24,196 nt of DNA from Promethearchaeota archaeon (GCA_014728035.1 WJMJ01000170.1:1-24196), one strand, 5' to 3'; counted from the stretch's first letter, positions 6,637-24,196 are shown. Numbers and translations are program-made. Notes: generated by a model from the sequence alone, not told the origin.

Positions 6637-6960
6637 ATGAAAATGAAAGAATTTTGTAATCAAATTGAATCTTCTAAAGATATGAGTGGTGTTGGTATGG
6701 AATTGGGCGAAAATGATAAATTAAAGAGCGTGATTGTCAAGAGTGAGTTTACTGGTCTTGATGTAAAGTTGCCTGTTGAGGCCATAGAAAAATCTGATTG
6801 GAGCACAATCAGTGACATAATTGCTGGGAAAAGAGAACCTGCTGTCTTACAACACATGAGCAGGGTAGTAGGTTATTTTAGTAAAATAGAAAATTGGAAT
6901 TCGAGCAAGATTGGTGAATTGCACGACAGACAAAAGGGCGATTACCAACTTAAGGATTGA
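6637..6960 (+). CDS. Stand-alone NrdD-type glycyl-radical domain protein
   Basis: The C-terminal SRVVGYFSKIENWNSSKIGELHDR is the class III RNR glycyl-radical motif (Gly codon at 6871-6873). An AGGAG RBS is present. Confidence 0.85.
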   Translation: MKMKEFCNQIESSKDMSGVGMELGENDKLKSVIVKSEFTGLDVKLPVEAIEKSDWSTISDIIAGKREPAVLQHMSRVVGYFSKIENWNSSKIGELHDRQKGDYQLKD

Positions 6961-6965
6961 ACCAA

Positions 6966-7775
6966 ATGAAGATGTCTGTAATTACAGAAACCACGGAACT
7001 GGAATTTACTGAACCAGAAGGATATTTCGTGTATGGTGGTGATAAATATCCATATTGGGGCAATCCTGGTGGTAGATCAAAGACTATCGAATATGAAGTG
7101 GGTAAATTCAATCGATATGCAAAGATGGGTCATGCCGCTGATGAGTTGGTTGAAAAATTCGAGCGGAACGTAAAACAAGATTGGAAAGGTGTTAAAGGCA
7201 GATGCTCCTATGCTTGTTTAGTAATGATGAAATATGGAATAAGAATAGGAAATGAGGATTCTGCTGTCGGGTATGAGTCTGGCCTAGAAGAAACTGAGGG
7301 CGAAATAGTACAGACATATGGAACCACTACTCTATTAAACAAACATGTGTTTGTGGAAGAAGACAAAATAATTCTCGATTTTTTGGGCAAAACCCAAGTC
7401 GAACAACATGTGGATATAGATGATCCATTCGTTGTAGAATATGCGAAGAGATATGATGATTCGGATCGTCCAGAAGAGAAATGGCTTGGGATTGACTATG
7501 ATATGCTGTTTGATTTTGTAAAAAGTGAAGTCGGCGATTCTTTTGTACCCAAAGATTTTCGGACTTTTTGTGCAAATGTGACCGCGTGGAATGAAATTAA
7601 ATCATATCTTGACAACCCAAAAAGAGAAACAAGAACAGATGTTAACAATGAAATAAAAAGTGTTGTTGAAGCTGTTGCTAATCAATTGGGTAATACGCCC
7701 GGAATATCAAAACGTAATTATATTGATTCCAGAATGTTGGACTGGTTTAAGAGCAAAAGACTAAATGAAGAATAA
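6966..7775 (+). CDS. DNA topoisomerase IB, catalytic domain with a short N-terminus
   Basis: IRIGNE, TYGTTTL...HV, LDFLGK, KDFRT and LGNTPGISKRNYID give the R-K-R-N-Y pentad. AAGGA upstream supports ATG 6966. Confidence 0.88.
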   Translation: MKMSVITETTELEFTEPEGYFVYGGDKYPYWGNPGGRSKTIEYEVGKFNRYAKMGHAADELVEKFERNVKQDWKGVKGRCSYACLVMMKYGIRIGNEDSAVGYESGLEETEGEIVQTYGTTTLLNKHVFVEEDKIILDFLGKTQVEQHVDIDDPFVVEYAKRYDDSDRPEEKWLGIDYDMLFDFVKSEVGDSFVPKDFRTFCANVTAWNEIKSYLDNPKRETRTDVNNEIKSVVEAVANQLGNTPGISKRNYIDSRMLDWFKSKRLNEE

Positions 7776-8025
7776 AGATTTCATATCCAAAGCAAGAAAC
7801 ACCCATGGAAATATGTATGATTATTCTATGGTTGAATATATCAATCATTTATCTCCTGTGAAAATAATATGCCACAAACATGGTGTTTTTGAACAAGTTC
7901 CATCATATCATCTGAGCGGTAATGGATGTCAAATGTGTTCGAAGGAAAAACTTGGAAACACAAAAGAGAAATTTGTTAAAAATTTTTGGGATGCTGGACA
8001 TTATAGGTTCGTGATGGGGAGATAA
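7765..8025 (+). pseudogene. Homing-endonuclease remnant (DUF723-like zinc repeat, nuclease core missing)
   Basis: FI.KA...HG..YDYS.VEY...VKIIC.KHG.FEQ.P..HL.G.GC..C, then the start of a second repeat, then WDAG. Confidence 0.65.
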
Positions 8026-8027
8026 AT

Positions 8028-8324
8028 ATGACAATTGTGTATAGTCTACCGAATTGTTGTAAGTGCGATGCGGCGAAACAAAAATTGAAAATATTTCATA
8101 TTGACTATGAGGAAAGGCCTTATGGTCATTATGTCACATATCATGATGGTTGGAGAGAAGATGGTAGTTTAGAGGCAGTCACAGCAAGGTGCTTCTATGG
8201 AGAAAAGGCAGTGCCACTCATTGAGCATGACGGCAAATTTTATGATTACCCTGGTTTTATGAAAGAAGTGAAAAGGGCGTCAAATGCGGAACTTCCGTCT
8301 TGTAATATTAAATGCAGCGCATAG
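8028..8324 (+). CDS. Glutaredoxin/NrdH-like redoxin
   Basis: IVYSLPNCCKCDAAK (CxxC) and the VPLI..DG cis-Pro motif. It lies directly upstream of nrdD. Confidence 0.8.
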   Translation: MTIVYSLPNCCKCDAAKQKLKIFHIDYEERPYGHYVTYHDGWREDGSLEAVTARCFYGEKAVPLIEHDGKFYDYPGFMKEVKRASNAELPSCNIKCSA

Positions 8325-8337
8325 AGAGGTCAAATAA

Positions 8338-9255
8338 ATGCCGTCAAACATCAAGGTTCGTAAGAAAACTACCAGGAAGAACAATTCTACAGACATCAAC
8401 TTGTTGGTGAACACGGAAACAGATGATGTTTATTTTGAATGGGACAGGCACAAGATCGTAAATGCTCTACGCGAAGAGGGAGGTGTAGGAGAAAGAACAG
8501 CCAAGAACATAGCAAAATCTGTAGAGCAAAGGGTAATGGATTCTGGAATAAAGAAGATCACCACTTCTCTCATAAGAGAATTGGTTGATAATGAGTTGTT
8601 TGAACTTGGCTATCAAAAGAAGTTAGAAAAACAAGCATCTATTAGCCTACCGAAATCTGATATAGAGGAATTGATATTTTCAAAGAGCCAAGAAAATTCA
8701 AACATCGGAACCAATAATCCAGAAGCTATTCAGTTTTCTCTTTCAGAAACTGCTCTAAAGCAATATGCACTGCAGGAAGTTTTTTCTGAAGAAGTTGCTG
8801 AGGCCCACAGAACCGGCAAAGTACACGTCCACGATTTAGGACACCCTACAAGAATTTATGCATTCAGTAAAGATACAAAATTAATTGTAAAAATTGATGG
8901 TGATATCAGAGAAATGACGCTAGAAGAATTATATGATTGTGTCGATGGAATATCTTTGCAGATAAATGAAACTCAGCACACAAAAGAATGTTCCCATTCA
9001 GATATGTTTGTCTTAGACAGAAATGATTGGGTGAAGTTAAATAGGGTTATATTTTCTGACGAAGTTAAGGACATGGTTGAGTTTAGTGTTGGTGGGCACA
9101 TCGTGAAAGTCACTTCAGACCACGGGTGTGTTGTTAAAAGAAACAATAGGGTAATAATAACAAGAGCGGACGAAGTCAAAAATACAGACGAATTCATGTA
9201 CGTAATGAAGGAGTCTGTTGATGGTAATATGCCAAATATGCAAGAAAAAATTTAA
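8338..9255 (+). CDS. nrdD: Class III RNR N-terminal fragment (ATP cone) fused to split-intein N half
   Basis: ATP cone (WDRHKIVNAL..E...ITTSLIRELV), ENSN...NPE, and AH..G.VHVHDLG.PTRIY. Intein motifs follow from 8860. Confidence 0.9.
   Translation: MPSNIKVRKKTTRKNNSTDINLLVNTETDDVYFEWDRHKIVNALREEGGVGERTAKNIAKSVEQRVMDSGIKKITTSLIRELVDNELFELGYQKKLEKQASISLPKSDIEELIFSKSQENSNIGTNNPEAIQFSLSETALKQYALQEVFSEEVAEAHRTGKVHVHDLGHPTRIYAFSKDTKLIVKIDGDIREMTLEELYDCVDGISLQINETQHTKECSHSDMFVLDRNDWVKLNRVIFSDEVKDMVEFSVGGHIVKVTSDHGCVVKRNNRVIITRADEVKNTDEFMYVMKESVDGNMPNMQEKI
8860..9255 (+). mobile_element. Split intein, N half (starts with Ala)
   Basis: Block A-like AFSKDTKLIV, TLEELY, block B VKVTSDH, and the RADEVKNTD motif. 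Confidence 0.85.
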
Positions 9256-10195
9256 GGCGATTGGTCACAATCATTTGAAGACGCATGGTTTAACAGTCAA
9301 AGAATATAAATTGTTATATCCAGGTCATAAAATGATAAGTGATTCAACGATGGAGAAATACAAGTTACATACCAAAAAACTTGTTAAAGAAGGGGTATTT
9401 GGATCACGATCATCAAAAACGCATCTGTTTTTCTTGCATTTGTTGGAACAATATTTCCCATGTGTCGAGTTTGAATCTGAATACACTATTAAATATTATA
9501 CTGTTGACATTGTTTGTTTGGAAAAGAAATTGGCCATAGAGATTAATGGTGATTGGTTCCACAACAAAGACAATAAACCATATGATGAATTGACACCAAT
9601 ACAAAAAAAGAATCATAAAAATGACAAATCGAAATCGACATTTTTAAGAAGGAAAGGTTGGAATCAGGTTATCTTGTGGGAAAGCGACATAAAAAATTCG
9701 GTCGAGTCACAAGTTGAAATTGTTTCCAATTTTCTCAACAAAAAACCACTAGAAAACATCCATATTGATTTAAAAAAGAAATGCAAACAATGTGGCAAGC
9801 GTATTCCACCAAGTAAAAACAATTATTATTCGGAAGCTAAGAAGTATTGTTCAAATGAATGCAAAAACAAAGCTTTCCTCAGAGATAGAAATGATGATTC
9901 TGAATGGCGAGTGCATTGTAAACAATGTGGTAAGAAATTAAAAAACAGAAGAAATAAATCGTTTTGTGGCAAAGATTGCCAAAAGAAGTTTGAATCGGAT
10001 GAATCTTATAGGGAGGATTTGCACCAAAAGATTAGTAAATCCATAAAAGACTCAGAATATCACAAAAAACGAAGAATTAATGGCAGAGTTGATTTGGTTT
10101 GTGATTGTGGTAAAAATTTTTGGGTCCATAAGAAAAGATTAAAGAGGGGTGGCAATATTTGGTGTTCTAGAGATTGTTATATTAAATATCACTGA
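9221..10195 (+). CDS. Free-standing putative homing endonuclease (Vsr/DUF559-like PD-(D/E)xK) with zinc-finger repeats
   Basis: N-terminal CQIC..HL..HG finger; core VDI.....AIEINGDWFH...ND..K....KGW....WE; three C-terminal Cys-rich repeats. RBS AAGGAG at 9208-9213. Confidence 0.85.
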   Translation: MVICQICKKKFKAIGHNHLKTHGLTVKEYKLLYPGHKMISDSTMEKYKLHTKKLVKEGVFGSRSSKTHLFFLHLLEQYFPCVEFESEYTIKYYTVDIVCLEKKLAIEINGDWFHNKDNKPYDELTPIQKKNHKNDKSKSTFLRRKGWNQVILWESDIKNSVESQVEIVSNFLNKKPLENIHIDLKKKCKQCGKRIPPSKNNYYSEAKKYCSNECKNKAFLRDRNDDSEWRVHCKQCGKKLKNRRNKSFCGKDCQKKFESDESYREDLHQKISKSIKDSEYHKKRRINGRVDLVCDCGKNFWVHKKRLKRGGNIWCSRDCYIKYH

Positions 10196-10206
10196 ATGGA
10201 GATGAA

Positions 10207-10368
10207 ATGATATTAGAAAAAGGTGAAATTATTGAGCTTGATCCAAAAAGTTTTGATTATGATTCATATAAAATAGATAGTATTTCGTACGACAAAGAAG
10301 ATGGTGTATATGATATCACAACTTCTTCTGGATTTTTTCAAGACACAAACAATATTGTTCACAAACAA
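10207..10368 (+). mobile_element. Split intein, C half (54 aa, ends in Gln)
   Basis: KIDSI...VYDITT..GFF...NIVHKQ followed by the +1 Cys of NrdD. RBS GGAG at 10198-10201. Confidence 0.85.
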
Positions 10369-11892
10369 TGTTCCAGTCATTCTTTAGAATATATTAAAAA
10401 ATATGGTCTAGATCTCAACAATCTAGATTCCAAATCGGCTCCAGCAAAGCACGCCAGAACTCTTAGTGTCCATTTGAATTCTTTTTTGGCCAGCATGCAA
10501 GCTTATTATGCCGGTGCTCTTGGTGTTGCTTATGTTAATATCATGTATGCGCCATATCTAACAGAGATGAGCGATGATGAAATGTATCAGGAAGCTCAAC
10601 ATCTGATCTTCCAAGCTAGCCAAAATGCTTTCACCAGAGGCGGTCAATGTCTATTTATAGATTTCAATATACACACCGGAGTTCCAGGGTACCTTAAAAA
10701 TATAAAAGCAATCGGTCCTGGCGGTAAGTATACTGGCAAGACATATGGTGATTATGAAGATGTGGCCCTCAGATTTACTCACGCTCTATTGAAAGTATGG
10801 GGAAAAGGGGACGCAACCGGCACACCCATGGCATTTCCGAAGTGTAATTTGCATATCAATGACGATACTTTCAAAGACCAAAACCAAAAACAAGTTTTCG
10901 ATTTCGCATGCAAGATTGCTGCTAAAAATGGGATCGTCTATTTTGTGTTTGATAGAGATGAAGTAACTCTGAGTGCTTGTTGCAGACTAAGAACAACCAT
11001 TAGTGATAATTACATGATTGATCATCCTGAAAGCTTAAGGTTCGCGGGTTTTCAGAATGTAACCATAAATCTACCACAGTGTGCATATAGAGCAGGCAAG
11101 GAAAATATTGATCAATTGTATAAAGAATTAGAATCAATGTTTAAGATATGCATCAAAGCACACCTAGATAAGAAAAAATTTGCGTCTGAACTTATGAGTA
11201 AACCAGGCATGCCATTGTGGCAAGTTGGAAAGATAGCCAGAGATGGAAGACCATACATAGATCTGGACAAAGCGACTTACATTATCGGCGTTATTGGTCT
11301 GAATGAATGTTTACATTATTTGATTGGTAAAGAATTGCATGAAGATGAAAACACATTGTGGATTGGAATTAGGATAATTTCATATTTGTTCTTTTTAGCA
11401 AAAGAAGCTGAGTCTAAGTATGGTTTAAAGTTTACGATAGAGGAATCTCCAGCAGAATCCGCGTCAAGGCGCCTTGCCAAAATAGACCAGTATAACTTTA
11501 AAGACGTAATAGTCAGAGGTACTGGTGACGAAATATATTATTCTAATTCTATTCACATGAGGCCAGATGCCGATATAGATCTTTTAATCAGAATAACATG
11601 GCAGGCCAAATTTCATAAGATTATAGAATCTGGGGCCATCATACATGCATTTGTTGGTGAAAAGATGCCATCTTCAAAATCTATAGCTAACGTGATCTAT
11701 AAGACATTCAAGAACACAGATGCTGCCCAATTAACTATTTCTCCCGAATTCACGATATGTAAGAATTGCGGCAAAACTAAAATAGGGCTGAGAGATGTCT
11801 GTCAGCACTGTGGAGCCTGCAATATTTATGGAGTAGAATTCGGGAAATTCGAAGAAATTCATGAATGGGATAATAAGATTTTAAATAGGTGA
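10207..11892 (+). CDS. nrdD: Split-intein C half fused to class III RNR catalytic core, lacking the glycyl-radical loop
   Basis: CSSHSLEYIKKYGL, RGGQ, FPK, SACCRL finger loop, NVTINLP, EESPAES, YYSNS and CxxC-CxxC zinc site. No R-x-x-G-Y motif occurs before the stop. Confidence 0.92.
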   Translation: MILEKGEIIELDPKSFDYDSYKIDSISYDKEDGVYDITTSSGFFQDTNNIVHKQCSSHSLEYIKKYGLDLNNLDSKSAPAKHARTLSVHLNSFLASMQAYYAGALGVAYVNIMYAPYLTEMSDDEMYQEAQHLIFQASQNAFTRGGQCLFIDFNIHTGVPGYLKNIKAIGPGGKYTGKTYGDYEDVALRFTHALLKVWGKGDATGTPMAFPKCNLHINDDTFKDQNQKQVFDFACKIAAKNGIVYFVFDRDEVTLSACCRLRTTISDNYMIDHPESLRFAGFQNVTINLPQCAYRAGKENIDQLYKELESMFKICIKAHLDKKKFASELMSKPGMPLWQVGKIARDGRPYIDLDKATYIIGVIGLNECLHYLIGKELHEDENTLWIGIRIISYLFFLAKEAESKYGLKFTIEESPAESASRRLAKIDQYNFKDVIVRGTGDEIYYSNSIHMRPDADIDLLIRITWQAKFHKIIESGAIIHAFVGEKMPSSKSIANVIYKTFKNTDAAQLTISPEFTICKNCGKTKIGLRDVCQHCGACNIYGVEFGKFEEIHEWDNKILNR

Positions 11893-11895
11893 ATT

Positions 11896-12249
11896 ATGGG
11901 TAATAGTTGGCCGTCACATTGTACCTTAAGATCTCCATTCAATCACAATAATAAGGCCGCAGTGGGTGAACCCAGTCAAAAACCAGATGTTTCACAAGAG
12001 ACTATTAATCAAATTGCCCGAGAAATGGACAAACAGAAGCAGTCCATAAACATAAAATCAAAGCAAGAATTATGTCAGAAGATGCTTTCTTCCATGCCAG
12101 AAATTGATGAAACAATATCGGACGCAACTGAAGATCAACCAAATGAATTAGATAAATTATTAAATAATGGTTATAGACCGTTACATAAGACCAATGGCGA
12201 ATGGTCTGAATGTAATCCCAACCCACATAACAAGCTACTTTTAGAATAA
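11896..12249 (+). CDS. Hypothetical protein
   Basis: 117-aa ORF tightly packed after nrdD. No motif was recognised. Confidence 0.6.
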   Translation: MGNSWPSHCTLRSPFNHNNKAAVGEPSQKPDVSQETINQIAREMDKQKQSINIKSKQELCQKMLSSMPEIDETISDATEDQPNELDKLLNNGYRPLHKTNGEWSECNPNPHNKLLLE

Positions 12250-12258
12250 TCAAATATA
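12249..12258 (+). promoter_or_regulatory. Putative late-promoter motif ATCAAATATA
   Basis: Lies 9 nt before ATG 12268. The same 10-mer is upstream of the C39 operon. Confidence 0.4.
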
Positions 12259-12267
12259 CCAGAGACT

Positions 12268-15200
12268 ATGTCTGGAGAGATTATGATTGATAAGATATTG
12301 GAGTCTAGTTTAGATAGACTAGATGAAGCTTATAACATATTATTAGAAGATCATGTTGTTACAGAAGAAACTGCAGAGCTTATTGATCAAGACCCCGCCG
12401 AAATATATAAACAGCAGAGATTATCTCCAACATATCTGTATGGTGCTTTGTCTGAATTGATGAATAATTATAGATTTGGATCATATTTGTCCACTGCATC
12501 ATCTATGTTAGAATATTCCGCATATGTTCTAGACAGACAAGTTCCAATAAAGAACAAGTTAATAGAACAGGGAGAAGACGAAACAACTGCAGGCATAGAT
12601 TCTTTGAACTTAGCTATTCAAGAGATAGTTAGAGAAAGAGAAGAATATATTAAAGAGCTGATGGATAAGGGATATAGTCTCGAAAAAGCAACAACAGAAG
12701 TCAACAGAAACAAACCACTTCTTAACAGAGTACCAAGAACTGATCAGATGAGTGTGCGCTCACAGGTGTCTGGTGAGCAAGAGATATTTATGCACGCAAA
12801 AAAGATCGGGGTTGAGGGAGTAGAGCCATCTCTTTCAGAAGCGCACATCGGCAGTAGAAAAATAGACGTACAGAGATACCTAGAAAGTCTACACAGAATA
12901 ACAGAAGTAGAAAAGACCGATCCGGCTTGGCACGAGGTGGATATTTCCAAAATGGTCATATTTGGAGATATTAAAACCAATATAACTTCATCTCCGATAA
13001 GAATAAGAAAGAAGAGAGAAGAATTAGGTGCGTTGATGGCAGCGGCCGAGCGAAAAATAGCACAATATTCTGAATCAGAAGACCCCATGGATGCAGCTAA
13101 ATTAAAGGATAAAGAAGCAGAACTTGATAAATATAAATCTTTGAAATCACAGCTGTCTGTTGGGGTTTGGAGACCTACTGATCTGAATGAATTGGCATAT
13201 GGAACACCAAGTGCAGATATTAAATATAGTGGTGCAGAATCTCAATTAGAGGAAATTAGTTTTAGGCCAGATGAAGTATCAACAGAAAAACCAGAAAATT
13301 TAACTGGTTTGTTTCCAAAATTGTATTATATGATTGGTGGATATGATAGCAAGATTCAACAAGAATCTATTGGAATGGATGTTTGGAGAGAAGAACTAGT
13401 AGAAGCAGGTGCTGGCCGATACCACCTCAAAAACTTGATAGATAAAGAAAAAAGGGGTAGAGAAGCTGATCTTGATGAAGAGACAAAGCAAAAAATTGAC
13501 AAATATGAAAATATGATTGATGAGTGGAAACAACATTCAGGAGATCTTCGTAAAATATCTGTTGATTTATACCAAATAGTTGTTAAATATTTGGTTGATA
13601 GAATAGATGGGGCAAGAGACAGATATCATAAGAGAAAAGTAGAATTTAAAGGCAACAAAGAAATAATTGACAAGATAAATTCCGATCTTGACATATTAGA
13701 TGGAATAGTACCAGAGGACCCATCACAAAATATAGAGTTAGTAATTGGAAACACCAGATTCGTTAAAGGCAAAGACAACAAAAACGAATATGGTAAGTGG
13801 AGTGATGGATCTGACATATCAGATCCAGCAGATAGAAGTAGGATGCTACACATAACGTCATCTTTGTATGATGTTGATTTGGATTCTAGTTACAATGTTG
13901 GTAGTATATTTAAGAGAGTCTCAGTGGCCAAAATGATGGCTCAGTGTGTTGATAATTCAATTTATATGTGGGTATTGAACAAAGTATTCGATAATATTTA
14001 CAAATATGCTGATCCAGACAAATATGGTGTTGCTAATATAGGCAGTGATCCTGGAGTAGTAAATAAATTTATATGCAGCATTGATCAATCTGATAGCATA
14101 TATGGAATAGATAGTCGGTTTTCATGGTATCTAATACCGTTTATAGACAACCACAAAAGCAAGGCCAATAGATATTTTAGTGAGTCCCACGAAATAGTTT
14201 CAAGTACAGAGATCTTCCAAGGCAAAGAGGAACCAATTTCGTTTAGTGATTTCGAAAATTGGAGATCTGGGGTTTTAGATTTTGAAGACAAACAAATAGT
14301 AAGAGATAAATCCGGGAACCCAATAAAGATTGGCGGAGAAGGATTTGATAGATATCTGAATGCGGCTCTTTATGATATGAGCAGAAAAGGGAAAGTAGAC
14401 TTAGAATATTTACAATTAGACCTGCCAGAGAGCATTTCTGAGACATCTGACAACAGAGACAGTATAAAAGAAGAGTATGACAATTGCCTTGGAGCAATAG
14501 AAGATATCAAAGAACGAATCTCAAATGCCAAAGATCAATCGGCTGCTGCTGAACTGCAGGTTGCTCTTGAGAAGGAACAGGAAAGATGTCAAAAACTATT
14601 TGGTATGATGAGGAAGTTAGATATTAGTCTAGAAAACATGCAAAAAGAATCAAATAATTTATGGAATGCAATATTTGATAGGGCGAAAGAATTACAACAA
14701 ACCAGCCCAGATGCATTGGCTGCGCTCGAAAAAGTAAACATGAATAAATTCAATAATGAGGCTTTTCAATCTTGGCTCGAGGAGACTGGCAGACAAGAGA
14801 AACTCGATAGTATCTATGAAAAGTATATAGATGACAACAAGATAGAATCTGAGCTTAGAAAGATGTTGAAGACATATAAAGATGAATTTATTGAAGAAAC
14901 TGAGGAAGATGGTGAAATTCACATAGAACCAGAAGTAAAGAACTTAGTAATTAATTTGGCTCACGGTGTCGAATATGGTGATGAAAAGGTTAATGCTCCC
15001 TATGAGAAATATGATTATAAGAGATTGGCCGAAATCACAAATGAGAGAATAGACGAAATAAATACGGAAGCCTTTCAATCTTGGCTCAAGGAGACTGGTA
15101 GACAAGAAGAATTAGATAAGGTTCATGAAGAATCTGAGATTAGAAAGAAGATGTTGAAAGATTACAAAGATGAGTTCATTGATGAGGGAAGGAATCTCAG

Positions 15201-18200
15201 CAAGGTTACCCCAGAAGATGTTGATATGATTTTGGGTGGGTCTAAAATTGATAGATCAAATATGCTATCTTATGCGGTAAATTCATTGCGGCAATTGGCA
15301 TCTAAATCTGCCAAAACAAACGTCAGAGAAAAAGTTGCTCCGGTTATGAGAGACATGGTGGAAAGAGACGGAAAAACCAATAAATTCATCCGTGCTATCA
15401 TAGAATCTCTTACTGCTATTGTAGAAACGCATATTGTGCAATGTTCGCAGACTGTTATGTTTGGTGGTGGTGGAACAAAAACAGGAGTTTCGTACAAAGA
15501 CGAAGATGGTTATCTAAGAATGCCTCCAGGATGGGATCCTGGAGAACTATATGGTAGGAGATCAAATCCTTATGCCGCAATACGTTCCTTGGCCAAGCAA
15601 ATTGACAGAATAAGCAGCGATGACAGATATTCAGAGGACCAAAAAGAAGAAGAAATAAATAAACGCAAAGAAATGATTAAATTATATAGCAGAAAAATGG
15701 AACAGGATCCGAAAGCCCGTAAGGTAGCCAATAGAGCACACTTAATAAATAGTATAAATAATCCATTTCTTCCGATTAATCAGGATCGTTTATCTAAATT
15801 AATGTCCAAGATGGAAGATTTTTATAATGGTTATGATGTGGAATGGGAAACTTATGATGTGACACTACCATCTGGCGATACGCAAATGGTATCTGAACCA
15901 GATATGGTTGATTTCTTACACAAGAATACTCCACTTATGCAAAGTATGGGAGTTAATGTTGCTAGAGTAGTTCTTAGATATTTAACTGAGACACCGCGCA
16001 GTGTTGCTATTGCTGGCATTCCAGAAAGACTCCCGACAGACAGGAGCAAAGACATAACTGATTTAGGCGCAATGAATGCGAGTAATGTGATTACAAGCAT
16101 GCTTGGCATGATTGGGGCCAAAGACTACCTGCATGGAAGAGACGAAGAAGATGAAGATGGCAATAAGTATCACATAGATGGTTTAATGGATGTTATGGAA
16201 AGTCAAGGATTAACAAAGTATCTTGAAGACATATCTGTCCCATCAAGAATTGTTCCTCAATTAGCTATGGAATTGGCCCTATGGGTGAACGGCCAAAAGG
16301 CGAAGGGCGGATTGGACATAGATGGTGCTAAGCTGGTCAGAGAACATATCAGAAACAAGCTTTTTGACTACATAAGCGCATCTATTCCAACACCAAAGGG
16401 CGAACTAGATAGAAGTTCTATTAATGCAAGGCGAGATATAGTTAATAAGATCAACAAAGCATCGAACAAGGTTGTTGAACAGATGATAAAACTTTCAACA
16501 CCAGATGCAGATGAAATATTGGATGGCCAAAAAGAGTTTGACAACGTTGTAGACATGTTCGCTAGAATGAAATCTGGAATGTTAAGATTGAAAGATTCAG
16601 ATTTACATTATAGCGCAGCCGATGAAGCTGACGTTAATGTAATAAATGATTTGATAAATTCAGCAAACAGTTTCAGAGAAACTGGCAATATAGAAGAATT
16701 AAAGAAAACATATAAGAATTTCCTGAATCTCTGTAATGATTTAGCAGTTAAGAAAGATTCTGAAAGGGTATTTGCAGATGCCACTCAGCATCTTGGGAAT
16801 ATTGATAGATTAGACAATCTGTCTTATCTAGTTTCTAAGATGGACAGAGCTGATGGAGAAGAGAGAGAAGACATAAAAACAAGCATAACGACATTAATTG
16901 ATGAACTGTCGGATAGAGGAGTTATATTATCTGGTGATTTAGGGTCGTTACCGGCATTGATGGATTCTGCTGCCAATTCTCGCAAAGACGAAATGAATAG
17001 AATTGAATCAATTATTGGGAGATATGCCAATATACCTAGAGATTATACGGATTATACTATTTCAATTCCCGAATTAGAAAACACTGAGGGAGATAAAGTC
17101 AAGATAGGTATCGATACTGATCTTGTATCAACTGTATATAGCAAGCTTAATGAGATAAGAAATGTTGCTCTTGCTATTGGCGATTATCATAGGGCAAGAG
17201 AAACAATAGAAACAGAAAACCCAGAATCAGCAGAATATGAGGATGCATTGGCTCGTAAAGAACAGGCTTACGAAACCATACATGTGTCAATGGGAAAAAT
17301 TGCTAGTGATATTGGGGAGACACCTGGTGCGAAATTAGATACACAAGGTGGGATAATTCATAAATTCACTGGGGAATTAGATAAATTCTCTAAAGAATAT
17401 AAGGGTCGTTTGGGTCTATATGATAAGTTAATAGATATCAGAAACGATCTTCTTGGACAGGGATTGTCCGACGATCAAATAAGAGAAGGTTATGTTAATA
17501 TTTATCGCAAATTATTACAGTCTGCTAAAGTATATAATTTAGAACCTCGACACGTTGCTTCAGAGTTAGCTGATAGATTTAGAAAATATATTGAATTTAA
17601 GAGAGAACAACACCGGACGAGAAGAGAAGCTTTTGGTGGTATAGAAATAGATACTATATTGTATGTTCCAGGATCGTCTGAACCGTTAGAAGTTTCTATT
17701 TATCCCATGGAAAATGTTTATGATAAGGTCAGTAAAACTCTTGATTCTGGGATATCGCTTGAGGCTACTTTGATCAATCCACAAAAATTCATAAATTCTG
17801 GAGAAGGTGTTCTGTCAATAAAATATGACAATGTGCAAGAAATGGAAAAAGGAGAAACAGAGACAGAAATAGCGCCAGAGGAAGAATACAGCATCGATGC
17901 AAATATGACTATAAGGTCAGCTGTTGAGATAGATATCGATAAACACGATGAAATAATAACATATCTGAACCAAAGTGGCAAAAAGCCAGTTATTATAAAG
18001 AAAACTAAAAAGGGCGAATTTTGTTGGGACAAATTAAGAGACAGTGTCAATGATTTGATAGATGAGACAAAGCCATTGCTTGAAAAAATGAGATCTGATT
18101 TTTCTGGGTTGGCTAAGAAATTTGGTTCAGATGAGTTGGCCAATGCTGTCGAGCATTATGATTTAGACAGAATGAGATCAATTGCAGATCATCTTATTGA

Positions 18201-18432
18201 TATTGGTGATAAAGATCCAGATAGAGCATTCCCACGTAAATTCTGGGATCAATTTAAGAATTTCTCTGATGTTCTTAAGAAATCAATGGGTCTTGGGAGT
18301 ATGAAAAAGGCCATAGAAGAATATGACACGGAAGGCATTCAAGAAATAATAGATGAATTGTCAAGCAGAAACATAAAATTGTCTCCAAGAATTATATCTG
18401 ACGTGCAGGAATGTATTGAATCTGTACGATAG
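12268..18432 (+). CDS. 2054-aa charged, probably helical protein of unknown function (candidate internal virion protein)
   Basis: Uninterrupted 6.1-kb ORF, D/E/K-rich, with coiled-coil-like segments and an internal duplication. No catalytic motif was recognised. Confidence 0.85.
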   Translation: MSGEIMIDKILESSLDRLDEAYNILLEDHVVTEETAELIDQDPAEIYKQQRLSPTYLYGALSELMNNYRFGSYLSTASSMLEYSAYVLDRQVPIKNKLIEQGEDETTAGIDSLNLAIQEIVREREEYIKELMDKGYSLEKATTEVNRNKPLLNRVPRTDQMSVRSQVSGEQEIFMHAKKIGVEGVEPSLSEAHIGSRKIDVQRYLESLHRITEVEKTDPAWHEVDISKMVIFGDIKTNITSSPIRIRKKREELGALMAAAERKIAQYSESEDPMDAAKLKDKEAELDKYKSLKSQLSVGVWRPTDLNELAYGTPSADIKYSGAESQLEEISFRPDEVSTEKPENLTGLFPKLYYMIGGYDSKIQQESIGMDVWREELVEAGAGRYHLKNLIDKEKRGREADLDEETKQKIDKYENMIDEWKQHSGDLRKISVDLYQIVVKYLVDRIDGARDRYHKRKVEFKGNKEIIDKINSDLDILDGIVPEDPSQNIELVIGNTRFVKGKDNKNEYGKWSDGSDISDPADRSRMLHITSSLYDVDLDSSYNVGSIFKRVSVAKMMAQCVDNSIYMWVLNKVFDNIYKYADPDKYGVANIGSDPGVVNKFICSIDQSDSIYGIDSRFSWYLIPFIDNHKSKANRYFSESHEIVSSTEIFQGKEEPISFSDFENWRSGVLDFEDKQIVRDKSGNPIKIGGEGFDRYLNAALYDMSRKGKVDLEYLQLDLPESISETSDNRDSIKEEYDNCLGAIEDIKERISNAKDQSAAAELQVALEKEQERCQKLFGMMRKLDISLENMQKESNNLWNAIFDRAKELQQTSPDALAALEKVNMNKFNNEAFQSWLEETGRQEKLDSIYEKYIDDNKIESELRKMLKTYKDEFIEETEEDGEIHIEPEVKNLVINLAHGVEYGDEKVNAPYEKYDYKRLAEITNERIDEINTEAFQSWLKETGRQEELDKVHEESEIRKKMLKDYKDEFIDEGRNLSKVTPEDVDMILGGSKIDRSNMLSYAVNSLRQLASKSAKTNVREKVAPVMRDMVERDGKTNKFIRAIIESLTAIVETHIVQCSQTVMFGGGGTKTGVSYKDEDGYLRMPPGWDPGELYGRRSNPYAAIRSLAKQIDRISSDDRYSEDQKEEEINKRKEMIKLYSRKMEQDPKARKVANRAHLINSINNPFLPINQDRLSKLMSKMEDFYNGYDVEWETYDVTLPSGDTQMVSEPDMVDFLHKNTPLMQSMGVNVARVVLRYLTETPRSVAIAGIPERLPTDRSKDITDLGAMNASNVITSMLGMIGAKDYLHGRDEEDEDGNKYHIDGLMDVMESQGLTKYLEDISVPSRIVPQLAMELALWVNGQKAKGGLDIDGAKLVREHIRNKLFDYISASIPTPKGELDRSSINARRDIVNKINKASNKVVEQMIKLSTPDADEILDGQKEFDNVVDMFARMKSGMLRLKDSDLHYSAADEADVNVINDLINSANSFRETGNIEELKKTYKNFLNLCNDLAVKKDSERVFADATQHLGNIDRLDNLSYLVSKMDRADGEEREDIKTSITTLIDELSDRGVILSGDLGSLPALMDSAANSRKDEMNRIESIIGRYANIPRDYTDYTISIPELENTEGDKVKIGIDTDLVSTVYSKLNEIRNVALAIGDYHRARETIETENPESAEYEDALARKEQAYETIHVSMGKIASDIGETPGAKLDTQGGIIHKFTGELDKFSKEYKGRLGLYDKLIDIRNDLLGQGLSDDQIREGYVNIYRKLLQSAKVYNLEPRHVASELADRFRKYIEFKREQHRTRREAFGGIEIDTILYVPGSSEPLEVSIYPMENVYDKVSKTLDSGISLEATLINPQKFINSGEGVLSIKYDNVQEMEKGETETEIAPEEEYSIDANMTIRSAVEIDIDKHDEIITYLNQSGKKPVIIKKTKKGEFCWDKLRDSVNDLIDETKPLLEKMRSDFSGLAKKFGSDELANAVEHYDLDRMRSIADHLIDIGDKDPDRAFPRKFWDQFKNFSDVLKKSMGLGSMKKAIEEYDTEGIQEIIDELSSRNIKLSPRIISDVQECIESVR

Positions 18433-21264: not shown

Positions 21265-21816
21265 ATGCCATATAATTTCCCGATACCAAGATCTAGAGGG
21301 TGTCAGCCTCCTAGAGAAGACAGTGAAAATAAATGTACTAGTGGATGCCTCGGTAACGAAGAGTTCTTCGTTAACGATATGATTTTGCATGCATTAATTG
21401 GCAGAGTAACTGCAAACAACGGAACTACTTACGAATTCGAGACTTTATATGATCCAGAATTAAAAGCAATGGAGGTAGACATACCTAGTTGCTATATGGA
21501 TTATCTCGAGACTGTCCAGGTTGGTCCTAATATACAGAGATATTTGCGATGGTTGATAGGCATAGCTTTTGGTGGATTGGCTAGCAATCTTTATTGGGCA
21601 GGCGAAGATGAGCTGGTTGACCTCGGTGGTGGGGTTTGGCAAACTCCACATGATTTCTTTGACGAGACATTGGCTGTGTTCGTTAATGGCAAAAAGGTCG
21701 ACAGACACAGATCAAACGGTTTTGAAGTCCTGAGTGACAATACTTTCAAAATGAAAGATACACACCCATCTAGTTGTGGTGCTAAAATTTCTGTGGGATA
21801 CATGAAAAACGAATGA
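21265..21816 (+). CDS. Hypothetical, probably structural protein
   Basis: The C-terminal beta-rich module (TLAVFVNG....F..) is of a kind seen in large-phage tail proteins. ATGA overlap with the fiber gene. Confidence 0.6.
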   Translation: MPYNFPIPRSRGCQPPREDSENKCTSGCLGNEEFFVNDMILHALIGRVTANNGTTYEFETLYDPELKAMEVDIPSCYMDYLETVQVGPNIQRYLRWLIGIAFGGLASNLYWAGEDELVDLGGGVWQTPHDFFDETLAVFVNGKKVDRHRSNGFEVLSDNTFKMKDTHPSSCGAKISVGYMKNE

Positions 21817-24196
21817 GCGACGTAGATCCTGATGCTTTACAACAAGACTTTCAAATCTCTGGTTCGTGTAATTATGACGATACCATAGTTAATCCACATG
21901 ACCAAGGTGTAGCTGAGGGGCAAGACAATCTTGAGGGCGACCTGAATATGCTCAGGACGCTCTTGAGAATACTTCTTGGAACAACTAATTGGTATGATCC
22001 GCCGGAGATGACCATTCAGGACATCTCCGACAAGATGATACCAGAACCAGTTCATCCATCTGGTTTTGATGGTGTAACTGTATCCGGTGGTAGTACCACT
22101 GCTTTTGACTCCGCAATTAAAACAATTACTAATCATAATTCTGGTGTTGGAAGCCCAACCACAGACGGGGTGGTTGTTGATTCTACACGTTCTCATGTTC
22201 TTCATGTTAGAGATAGTTCAACACATGATCCTATCGACGATGGTGCCGGTAACAAAGTTTACGGGCGCTTATCTTATGGCGCCGGAACCTACACAGTTAC
22301 ATTCTATTCTTGGGTTGGTGGAGTAGAGACACCATATACGTTTACTGCTCCGAGAGATGTTGATCTTGGTTATGTACTCGTTTCAAGAAGATACGAGGAT
22401 CTGGAATGGGATAGATTTTTTGACCTTGAATTCCAGGATAATATTACTGGAGTTGGTGGTTATCAAGGTTATCAAGGACCAGCCGGAATAGATGGAACCC
22501 AGGGTCCTCAAGGGTGGCAAGGCCAAGTCGGAGTTACTGGTTTTCAAGGTCCTCAAGGATTCTTTGGCCCACAGGGTTATTCTCCACAGGGACCACAGGG
22601 TTTCCAGGGATCAGGTTTTCAAGGACCGCAGGGAAATGAGGGGAACGATGGAATTCAGGGTCCACAAGGTTCTGGATACCAAGGCCCAGCTGGAATAGAT
22701 GGAACCCAAGGTCCGCAGGGTTTTCAAGGTCCGCAAGGTTTAGGCTTCCAAGGCAACAGTGGTATTCAGGGACCACAGGGCTTTGGGTTTCAGGGATTTG
22801 TAGGCACACAAGGACCTCAAGGTTGGCAAGGAACACAAGGTAACCAGGGGACATCCGGGACACAAGGACATCAGGGTTTTGGTTATCAGGGTGTGCAGGG
22901 GCCAGCAGGTATAGACGGAACCCAAGGTCCACAGGGAGTAGACGGAACTCAAGGTCCCCAAGGATGGCAGGGCCAAATAGGATCTACTGGTTTCCAAGGT
23001 CCTCAAGGATTCTTTGGTCCACAGGGTTATTCTCCACAGGGACCGCAAGGCCATCGTGGGTTCCAGGGAGTAAGAGGTGTACAGGGGCCACAAGGAAATC
23101 AAGGAATACAAGGTTTTCAAGGTAATGATGGCCCACAAGGATTTCAGGGATTACAAGGAAATCAAGGTAATCGTGGTTATCAAGGATATCAGGGATCATT
23201 CGGAGTAGATGGAACCCAAGGTCCGCAAGGGTTTCAGGGATGGCAAGGCAAAATTGGTCAGCAGGGTAATCAAGGACCTCAAGGATGGCAAGGATCTATT
23301 GGTTATCAAGGCAACCAGGGTAATCAAGGAAATCAAGGTGATTTTGGACCACAGGGCTTCCAAGGGTTAGTTGGTACGCAAGGAACTCAAGGGGATCAAG
23401 GTCCGCAAGGCAACCAGGGTAATCAAGGAAATCAAGGTGAATTTGGGCCGCAAGGCTTCGGTTATCAGGGTGTACAAGGACCAGCAGGGACAGATGGAAC
23501 TCAAGGTCCACAGGGATGGCAAGGTCAAATAGGATCTACTGGTTTCCAAGGTCCTCAAGGATTCTTTGGTCCACAGGGTTATTCTCCCCAAGGCCCACAG
23601 GGTTTTCAAGGGAAACGTGGCTTCCAAGGCCCACAGGGCAATCAGGGTTGGCAAGGGGAAGTTGGGCCTCAGGGGTTTGGTTTTCAAGGAGCAAGAGGAC
23701 CACAAGGTAACCAAGGCAATCAAGGTTGGCAAGGTAAAGTTGGACCACAGGGGACTACAGGGCCACAAGGAAATCGGGGTTTTCAGGGAGTTCGTGGCAC
23801 ACAGGGGAATCAAGGAAAGCGTGGTTATCAAGGAATAAGGGGTCCAGGGCGGCAGGGGCCACAAGGCTGGCAGGGTAAGCGTGGTTTCCAAGGCAATCGC
23901 GGATTTCAGGGTAACCAAGGCAACCAAGGAAATCAGGGCTGGCAAGGTGAATTTGGGCCGCAAGGCTTCGGTTATCAGGGTGTACAAGGACCGGCAGGGA
24001 TAGACGGAACTCAAGGTCCCCAAGGATGGCAGGGCCAAATTGGATCTATTGGTTTTCAGGGTCCTCAAGGATTCTTTGGCCCACAGGGTTATTCTCCACA
24101 GGGACCACAGGGTTTCCAGGGATCAGGTTTTCAAGGACCGCAGGGAAATGAGGGGAACGATGGAATTCAGGGTCCACAAGGTTCTGGATACCAAGG
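21813..24196 (+). CDS. Collagen-like fiber protein, 3'-truncated by the window end (not in the ORF track)
   Basis: Translated by hand from MSDVDPDALQQDFQISGS. About 215 aa of non-repetitive sequence precede Gly-X-Gln triplets from 22458 to the end. No stop codon was seen. Confidence 0.92.
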   Translation, partial: MSDVDPDALQQDFQISGSCNYDDTIVNPHDQGVAEGQDNLEGDLNMLRTLLRILLGTTNWYDPPEMTIQDISDKMIPEPVHPSGFDGVTVSGGSTTAFDSAIKTITNHNSGVGSPTTDGVVVDSTRSHVLHVRDSSTHDPIDDGAGNKVYGRLSYGAGTYTVTFYSWVGGVETPYTFTAPRDVDLGYVLVSRRYEDLEWDRFFDLEFQDNITGVGGYQGYQGPAGIDGTQGPQGWQGQVGVTGFQGPQGFFGPQGYSPQGPQGFQGSGFQGPQGNEGNDGIQGPQGSGYQGPAGIDGTQGPQGFQGPQGLGFQGNSGIQGPQGFGFQGFVGTQGPQGWQGTQGNQGTSGTQGHQGFGYQGVQGPAGIDGTQGPQGVDGTQGPQGWQGQIGSTGFQGPQGFFGPQGYSPQGPQGHRGFQGVRGVQGPQGNQGIQGFQGNDGPQGFQGLQGNQGNRGYQGYQGSFGVDGTQGPQGFQGWQGKIGQQGNQGPQGWQGSIGYQGNQGNQGNQGDFGPQGFQGLVGTQGTQGDQGPQGNQGNQGNQGEFGPQGFGYQGVQGPAGTDGTQGPQGWQGQIGSTGFQGPQGFFGPQGYSPQGPQGFQGKRGFQGPQGNQGWQGEVGPQGFGFQGARGPQGNQGNQGWQGKVGPQGTTGPQGNRGFQGVRGTQGNQGKRGYQGIRGPGRQGPQGWQGKRGFQGNRGFQGNQGNQGNQGWQGEFGPQGFGYQGVQGPAGIDGTQGPQGWQGQIGSIGFQGPQGFFGPQGYSPQGPQGFQGSGFQGPQGNEGNDGIQGPQGSGYQ
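22458..24196 (+). repeat. Collagen G-X-Q repeat region with higher-order modules
   Basis: The module G[IVT]DGTQGPQGWQGQ.G..GFQGPQGFFGPQGYSPQGPQG starts at 22485, 22935, 23487 and 23997. Confidence 0.92.

Follow-up and report, generated by a model that had tools for sequence, protein, structure and literature searches.

A phage-like contig encodes an anaerobic ribonucleotide reductase core without a glycyl-radical loop and a small protein that probably supplies the loop in trans

The 24.2-kb contig WJMJ01000170.1 (GCA_014728035.1), analysed here over its entire length and referred to as the window or as C152, encodes a class III (anaerobic) ribonucleotide reductase (RNR), NrdD, whose catalytic core carries no glycyl-radical loop of its own. 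A loop of the NrdD type is instead present at the end of a separate protein of 107 residues, and the comparative evidence, together with a co-fold that passed, makes it probable that this protein is an obligate radical subunit acting in trans. To our knowledge, textbooks place the radical glycine on the catalytic chain in every glycyl-radical enzyme. An initial annotation of the window had proposed a loop-less core served by a dedicated small protein, and this proposal was supported by the conservation of the split, the co-occurrence of the two parts, the retention of Gly79 of the small protein in 25 of 25 relatives, the constraint on the core and the co-fold.

The Pfam profile NRDD (PF13597) is divided over three open reading frames (ORFs) in the window. 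Profile positions 1-59 are found together with an ATP-cone in ORF 8338-9255, positions 54-529 in the core ORF 10207-11892 (E 1.7e-98), and positions 532-561 correspond to residues 68-100 of the small ORF 6637-6960. The core ORF of 561 residues matches the solved NrdD structures 8p23, 4coi and 4u3e. As initially annotated, it keeps a CxxC-CxxC zinc site (CKNC, 11758-11769; CQHC, 11800-11811), after which it continues through NIYGV and EFGKFEEIHEWDNKILNR to a TGA stop, and the R-V-x-G-Y glycyl-radical motif was not found on this polypeptide. The motif lies, again where it had been placed, near the C-terminus of the small ORF (RVVGY, residues 76-80). A six-frame regular-expression search (R[VIL]xG[YFW]...W) of the entire 4.3-Mb metagenome bin that includes the window returned this single NrdD-type tail on C152, as well as one cis tail on C95, a contig of the host. 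Both the CCRLRT finger loop, which we take to be the thiyl-radical site from knowledge of NrdD structures, and all four zinc cysteines were invariant among 42 loop-less relatives, over which the mean column identity of the core was 72%. The earlier count of three genes turned out to be too low, since the three NrdD-derived ORFs are joined by a homing-endonuclease ORF located between two of them, the N-terminal break in the enzyme being that of a split intein.

The small ORF is preceded by an AGGAG Shine-Dalgarno sequence 6 nt 5′ of its ATG. An exhaustive search at E<=1e-10 assigned its product to a family of 579 clusters (50% identity), of which the top 150 are nearly all 95-160 residues long and match over their full length; in a 90%-clustered database, 24 relatives of 89-121 residues were found. 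Besides the radical motif, residues S82, N86, W87, S90, K91, E94, L95 and R98 are invariant in the relatives, and the N-terminal part is likewise conserved, for instance at P46 and in the REPxVLQHM stretch. AlphaFold2 modelled residues 1-65 at a predicted local distance difference test score (pLDDT) of ~90, as a helix, three strands and two helices, while the glycine loop (residues 74-83) remained below 50 and was followed by a helix at residues 89-100. The ~70 N-terminal residues, previously described as unrelated sequence, are instead a conserved domain that is modelled with confidence. Foldseek found no match to this domain in the PDB at E<=0.001, and in a wide VIA-align search the best hits, HicA-like and dsRBD-like small alpha/beta folds, reached a Z of 5.0, which is within noise. 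When the ESM Atlas was searched with the small protein, only viral and Planctomycetota clusters of its own family were returned, and these were mostly viral. According to the sequence records, members of the family come from Planctomycetota, Planctomycetaceae, Omnitrophota and Elusimicrobiota, and from two anammox genera, Scalindua and Anammoxibacter. The radical domain of pyruvate formate-lyase (Gly_radical, PF01228) had no match in the small protein, and a Pfam scan at E<=0.1 gave NRDD alone. Among the relatives, we also noticed fusions of the small subunit to a glutaredoxin-like C-terminal domain (P0250 and P0278) and, in a protein of 802 residues (P0218), to a PolA-type DNA polymerase; the latter may be a real phage fusion or a read-through in gene calling.

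The division of the gene is conserved in related phages. Two independent contig sets, one from ENA (L008) and one from Logan (L010-L012), are syntenic with the window, their order being small ORF, DUF723 endonuclease, type IB topoisomerase, glutaredoxin-like gene, nrdD, an ORF of 119-125 residues and a giant protein. The NrdDs of these contigs end in YG[IV]EFGKF...W..., followed by a stop. An assembly error had been considered as a possible source of the unusual C-terminus; the same stop and tail were found in independent assemblies from other samples. It had likewise been considered that the core might be a decayed copy whose close relatives all keep the loop in cis. In a survey of the 120 best relatives of the C-terminal third of the core, the closest ones, at 66-84% identity (683-690 residues), all lacked R[VI]xGY. 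The motif was also missing from a large set of ~795-residue proteins encoded in Planctomycetota genomes, among them chromosomes of 3.8-5.1 Mb, and a sister set from Omnitrophota and Brocadiales (~810-815 residues) kept NVYGITRIVGYYSRI[DN]NWNKSKIGEL in cis.

Cellular genomes with loop-less cores carry the small ORF as well. In a Planctomycetaceae genome with a loop-less nrdD (P0053), a full-length small ORF was located on another contig. Co-occurrence, for which the initial annotation had suggested a survey, was then examined in the order of that genome (G001; Planctomycetaceae metagenome-assembled genomes, MAGs), comprising 17 genomes of at least 85% completeness. Each of the 17 contained exactly one full-length small ORF. 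The NrdD Pfam match stopped at positions 530-539 in 16 of them, and the single match that reached position 556 was a decayed tail without the glycine. The two genes are not linked: on closed or very large contigs they are hundreds of kb to Mb apart, for example at 335 kb and 3,510 kb in G410. In cells, the loop-less nrdD stands in an operon with nrdR, a 244-residue radical S-adenosylmethionine (SAM) gene, sometimes a 194-residue ORF, and a 334-residue radical SAM gene. In two such operons (L018, 10606-12365; L019, 7524-9921) the 244-residue gene is NrdG-like, and the 194-residue ORF has no family.

Other lineages show different states of the same pair. In two genomes of Omnitrophota (G418 and G419), an intact cis tail, TR[IV]VGYYSR, and a separate small ORF were verified in the sequence, and two more (G443 and G509) combine an intact loop and a small ORF according to the pattern of matches. 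Among 151 sampled Omnitrophota genomes, nine had this NrdD type, and the small ORF was present in three of the nine. The anammox genomes G420 and G421 carry a decayed cis tail and a small ORF, and the Elusimicrobiaceae genome G422 carries a truncated core and a small ORF. Read on these few genomes, the series agrees with an optional GrcA-like paralogue having become an obligate subunit, although contamination of the MAGs may explain its first stage, the intact loop beside a small ORF in Omnitrophota. Separate divisions of NrdD were observed elsewhere. In G406 (C65, 3467-5538; L023) an NrdD ending at profile position 531 is directly followed by a 75-residue tail ORF. Further kinds, noted with P0025 and family f13 of the host phylum, are a set of 85-residue proteins with half of the zinc site and the loop, and genomes that have two to three small tail ORFs each.

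We next consider the last residues of the core. The region after SPEFT was aligned in cis, intermediate and loop-less forms of NrdD. In this alignment, NIYGV of the window corresponds to the NVYGI that precedes TRIVGY in cis NrdDs, and the Trp of HEW corresponds to the Trp of NW[ND]KSK; this Trp (W501) is invariant in the 42 loop-less cores. Intermediate tails were KKIDGY (P0079) and RIGDY (P0108), and in P0083, P0086, P0088 and P0138 the glycine is lost and NW[ND][KR][ST]K is kept. The last 18 residues of the core are thus, as judged from the alignment, a decayed copy of the glycyl tail. An earlier view of them as a new docking peptide was dropped after alignment to the cis and intermediate tails. 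The glycine of EFGKF was considered as a cryptic radical site, but this glycine and its spacing to the Trp vary among loop-less cores (the glycine is absent in P0035, P0037 and P0038), and it is therefore not read as such. In many cellular loop-less cores, a Cys-Cys pair lies in or at the end of the decayed tail (AGCCR, NCCNW; P0053, P0077, P0094, P0125, P0130, P0145 and others), recalling the redox-active C-terminal cysteine pairs of class I and II RNRs.

The fit of the two proteins was modelled by co-folding core residues 54-561 (chain 1) with the small protein, in three runs and with three controls. The interaction prediction score from aligned errors (ipSAE) was 0.82, 0.82 and 0.83, and the best of the three controls scored 0.01. 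Among 80 solved complexes, 58 attained this mark, and among 110 mismatched pairs 2 did so; these counts hold only roughly here because our own alignments were used in the co-fold. The runs shared at least 91% of their contacts, and the pLDDT of the partner was at least 84. Among the contacts modelled with most confidence, VLQHMS of the small protein (residues 70-75) pairs with PEFTIC of the core, and residues 76-82 touch the conserved interior motifs FPK, ESPAES, YYSNSIH and GAIIHAF. Residues 43-44 of the N-terminal domain touch V543-E544 of the decayed tail; in the numbering of chain 1, residues 484-508 contact these and other residues of the small subunit. In the model the decayed tail is the docking surface for the N-terminal domain of the small subunit. 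The part of the pass that concerns the loop may reflect likeness to the solved one-piece NrdD structures, and the new part of the interface would therefore be that of the N-terminal domain with the zinc ribbon and the decayed tail.

The core is also interrupted near its N-terminus (Table 1). In the NrdD of L008 the extein is contiguous, reading PTRLY/CSSHSL without a break, whereas the window has PTRIY followed by the intein and, further downstream, HKQ followed by CSSHSL. The same split intein, with Ala1 and HKQ, is present in L010, where no endonuclease lies between the halves. Since the break is contiguous in L008, one half matches solved inteins and a Vsr/DUF559-like homing endonuclease lies between the halves, we regard the split intein at this joint as real. 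It resembles the fractured genes reported by Dassa et al. in 2009 (PMC2677866), in which a split intein is accompanied by a free-standing homing endonuclease of Vsr-like or GIY-YIG type: the order is extein and intein half, endonuclease ORF of Vsr/DUF559 type, intein half and extein, in a phage gene for DNA-precursor synthesis. Unlike the cases in that study, which lists eight host enzymes, NrdA, NrdJ and gp41 among others, and in which the term NrdD occurs zero times, the host gene here is nrdD and the intein has Ala1 and a C-terminal Lys-Gln. Inteins also occupy other sites in nrdD: L008 has a LAGLIDADG intein at MRF/S...HN/CGFQNV (10275-13571), and L010 has a mini-intein at FPK/C...KN/C (9034-11211). 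The phage nrdD gene is a hot spot for mobile elements.

We propose that a class III RNR is assembled from these separately translated parts. The catalytic body would be derived from ORFs 8338-9255 and 10207-11892, the intein halves uniting the exteins and probably splicing them. The N-terminal alpha/beta domain of the small protein would dock on the region of the zinc ribbon and the decayed tail, its strand VLQHMS would pair with the core strand PEFTIC, and the RVVGY loop would enter the barrel in the manner of the cis loop of a one-piece NrdD. A radical-SAM activase of the NrdG type would then place the radical on Gly79. This could be a host enzyme, for which an NrdG-like ORF with CxxxCxxC on the host-like contig C163 is a candidate; its score of 41 bits falls short of the TIGR02491 cut-off, 126. 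When the bin was searched with an NrdG profile, all matches lay on contigs other than C152. On host-like contigs a one-piece NrdD is divided across C44 and C95, with the cis tail SRVTGY on C95, and the tail of the host bin's NrdD is of a different subtype. The reductant is likely the product of the glutaredoxin-like gene, which is found directly upstream of nrdD in the window, in the syntenic contigs and on another contig of the bin, C70 (that copy being 56% identical). A redoxin-dependent enzyme is suggested by this adjacency and by the glutaredoxin-like fusions.

Table 1. Features of the window related to the divided NrdD, in order of position
Feature	Coordinates	Strand	Basis and remarks
Small glycyl-radical subunit (predicted), 107 aa	6637..6960	+	N-terminal alpha/beta domain 1-65, linker strand VLQHMS 70-75, RVVGY loop, C-terminal helix NWNSSKIGELHDR
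RVVGY glycyl-radical motif, residues 76-80; Gly79 codon 6871-6873	6862..6876	+	R76, V77, V78, G79 and Y80 invariant in 25/25 relatives
Homing-type endonuclease remnant, 86 aa	7765..8025	+	Matches phrog_681 and phrog_559 (endonuclease / HNH endonuclease) within the interior of profiles of 576-607 positions
Glutaredoxin/thioredoxin-like protein, CCKC motif	8028..8324	+	Pfam Glutaredoxin E 8.6e-5; phrog_22 thioredoxin domain
NrdD N-extein: ATP-cone and NRDD start, ending HPTRIY	8338..8859	+	Pfam; junction set by comparison with contiguous L008 NrdD (RLY/CSSHSL)
Split intein N-half, 131 aa, starts AFSKDT (Ala1)	8860..9255	+	Solved inteins 9hth E 1.7e-5, Pab PolC 2lcj E 1.3e-4; Pfam Intein_splicing weak
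Free-standing homing endonuclease, 325 aa, Vsr/DUF559-type nuclease core and zinc ribbons	9218..10195	+	DUF559 E 2.1e-6, MTES_1575, phrog_3339
Split intein C-half, 54 aa, ends NNIVHKQ before Cys+1	10207..10368	+	HKQ/CSSHSL conserved in L010
NrdD catalytic core extein: barrel, CCRLRT finger loop (10978-10995), Zn site CKNC...CQHC (11758-11811)	10369..11820	+	Pfam NRDD
Decayed glycyl tail of core (NIYGV-EFGKFEEIHEW-DNKILNR + stop)	11821..11892	+	Alignment to cis tails; without functional RVxGY

Several observations weigh against an obligate subunit acting in this way. The binding and the activity of the two-chain enzyme are predictions. The co-fold had been expected to show whether the glycine reaches the finger loop: the loop was placed in the barrel and binding passed, but the finger-loop cysteines (chain 1 residues 205-206) are absent from the list of confident contacts, and the model therefore falls short of placing Gly79 close to the thiyl cysteine. 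In addition, the core tail keeps the same conserved Trp-helix as the small protein, and the two may compete for one site, their joint fit resting on the model. Profile scans found no radical-SAM or NrdG gene in the window, as the initial annotation had stated for nrdG, nor was an activase gene found on C26 and C140, the contigs of matching tetranucleotide composition; the phage would therefore need the host enzyme, unless it has its own gene on unassembled DNA. At the N joint, the canonical splice residues (Cys or Ser at position 1 and a terminal His-Asn) are absent, and the intein, with Ala1 and terminal Gln, is therefore non-canonical. Inteins with Ala1 and inteins with terminal Gln are known, and splicing at this joint is plausible and predicted, its competence being uncertain. 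Finally, neither a profile search nor a regular-expression search of the bin found a small radical ORF for a second loop-less NrdD (P0076), which is encoded on C70. This protein (~54300-58000; L003, L004) has 940 residues and carries an intein; C70 itself is a 121-kb contig with a tetranucleotide correlation of 0.82, unlike the host, and is probably another large phage.

Conceivably, the small protein could be a true spare part, analogous to GrcA, or a phage tool for the host NrdD, with the phage core being irrelevant or inactive. GrcA and the T4 protein Y06I provide a precedent for this (PMC13450708), and it would suit both the Omnitrophota small proteins that stand beside NrdDs with an intact cis RIVGY loop (in three of the nine sampled genomes with this NrdD type) and the phage contigs that have the small ORF and no nrdD within 10 kb (L007). 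However, the phage core is strongly conserved with all catalytic and zinc residues intact, which is unlike the expectation for a dead gene; genomes with loop-less cores almost without exception carry both genes; and the host bin's NrdD has a tail of a different subtype. We consider this explanation unlikely, and beside a core that lacks the loop the small protein is the regular part rather than a spare. A somewhat smaller chance still is given to the idea that the loop-less core uses another radical source or no glycyl radical, the small protein having a different role. The two radical-SAM genes (244 and 334 residues) in the cellular operons, the Cys-Cys pairs in which many cellular cores end and the C70 core without a detectable partner would all be in line with it. 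The small protein, however, retains all invariant residues of the NrdD radical tail, is present in 17 of 17 genomes with such cores and has its loop placed in the barrel by the co-fold, and profile scans found no alternative radical generator on the contig.

It is very unlikely that the tail is joined covalently to the core through trans-splicing by an atypical split intein whose N-fragment is very short. What prompts the idea is that the extra sequence (~24 + 67 residues) falls exactly at one point of the NRDD profile, that a Cys follows CGA in the core of the window and that the same gene has a split intein at its N joint. A split intein at the C joint, with a short N-fragment like that of AceL-TerL, was nevertheless rejected: the putative Cys1 is variable, its place being taken by Ala, Phe, Val or Tyr in relatives, L008 included; the residues before the junction in the small protein are a conserved His-Met and not His-Asn; NIYGV is extein sequence common to cis NrdDs; and the 65-residue N-terminal domain, modelled as a helix, three strands and two helices, has no intein or HINT match. 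Moreover, 91 residues are too few for a HINT domain. Least probable of all is that the split arose in assembly or that the gene is a pseudogene broken recently. The contig does come from a metagenome bin with 8.5% contamination, but the same stop and tail recur not only in the independent assemblies from other samples but also in hundreds of protein clusters.

With an obligate radical subunit in trans, this enzyme would stand apart from the known systems. With the one-piece NrdDs activated by NrdG (phage T4, 1H78/1H79; Thermotoga maritima, 4COI/4U3E; Prevotella copri, 8P23) it shares the NRDD barrel, the cysteine finger loop, the C-terminal Cys4 zinc ribbon and an R-V-x-G-Y...NW tail at the same profile positions. 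In contrast to them, it has its radical tail on a detached protein of 12 kDa that bears an additional N-terminal domain, the tail left on the core is decayed, an intein divides the core, and nrdG is not among the adjacent genes. The autonomous glycyl-radical cofactors GrcA/YfiD (E. coli) and Y06I (phage T4) serve pyruvate formate-lyase, and according to a 2026 review formate lyases alone among glycyl-radical enzymes have spare-part proteins that are identified, those for others being 'yet to be determined' (PMC13450708). The small protein resembles these cofactors in being a stand-alone glycyl-radical domain with an N-terminal extension that is phage-encoded too. It is, however, not homologous to the radical domain of pyruvate formate-lyase, matching NRDD only; its N-terminal part is modelled as a folded domain, whereas that of YfiD is disordered (PMC13450708); and its parent enzyme has no intact loop in this phage and in Planctomycetaceae, where it is a regular subunit. 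The Omnitrophota relatives with an intact cis loop look like the 'spare' situation of GrcA/YfiD.

RNRs divided at other points offer a further comparison. In Aeromonas phage Aeh1 the catalytic subunit is made in pieces, NrdA-a and NrdA-b, that assemble non-covalently. The class II enzyme NrdJa/NrdJb of Pseudomonas aeruginosa is similarly composed of non-covalently assembling pieces, an extra C-terminal domain of NrdJa being thought to hold NrdJb, and the account of RNR extensions that describes it contains no split class III enzyme (PMC9669993). Both differ from the present case in RNR class and split point, and neither has the radical-storing residue on its detached piece. In full-text literature searches, we came upon no account of a radical domain detached from NrdD. 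New here are the Planctomycetota and phage family with its folded N-terminal domain, the decayed cis tail, the three-stage series and the second, intein-mediated fracture in the same gene. Only tentatively would we go further and propose that, with this family, a detachable glycyl-radical cofactor is met for the first time in an enzyme other than pyruvate formate-lyase, and at three evolutionary stages: an optional spare next to an intact NrdD in Omnitrophota, an obligate subunit with a decayed tail on the core in Planctomycetota, anammox bacteria and these phages, and an obligate subunit with a truncated core in Elusimicrobia.

If this tentative reading is correct, only the 12-kDa protein would have to be remade after exposure to oxygen and re-activated by the host NrdG, and phage-borne copies may re-arm host enzymes too. 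A natural two-chain class III RNR would make spare parts beyond the formate lyases directly testable. It would also give a clean system for the study of substrate recognition by NrdG and of the entry of the radical loop into the barrel, because the radical domain can be produced, labelled and mutated separately, and it would offer a plausible route from spare part to essential subunit. For annotation, loop-less NrdDs and the 'hypothetical proteins' of ~100 residues in Planctomycetota, anammox bacteria and many phages would have to be read as one enzyme.

The remainder of the contig is phage-like. Its genes include those for a 3D-domain protein, a C39 peptidase, a DHH phosphoesterase, an SprT-like protein, a type IB topoisomerase and homing endonucleases, as well as an MgsA-type AAA+ ATPase, a collagen-repeat protein and a protein of 2054 residues without a family. 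The tetranucleotide correlation of C152 with the large contigs of the bin is 0.90-0.91, the bin median being 0.98, and its best matches are C26 and C140. We read C152 as a phage contig that was binned together with a bacterium. The ORF of 2054 residues (12268-18432) has no Pfam or PHROG match, and its position after nrdD is kept in the syntenic contigs. An open-ended ORF of at least 794 residues (21813-24194) contains eight stretches of collagen triple-helix repeats and probably encodes a fibre protein; the G+C content rises at the end of the contig because of this ORF. The endonuclease remnant at 7765-8025 sits between the topoisomerase and the glutaredoxin-like gene. The syntenic contigs instead have a complete DUF723 endonuclease of 518 residues right after the small radical ORF (L008, 7602-9161; L010, 5329-6885).

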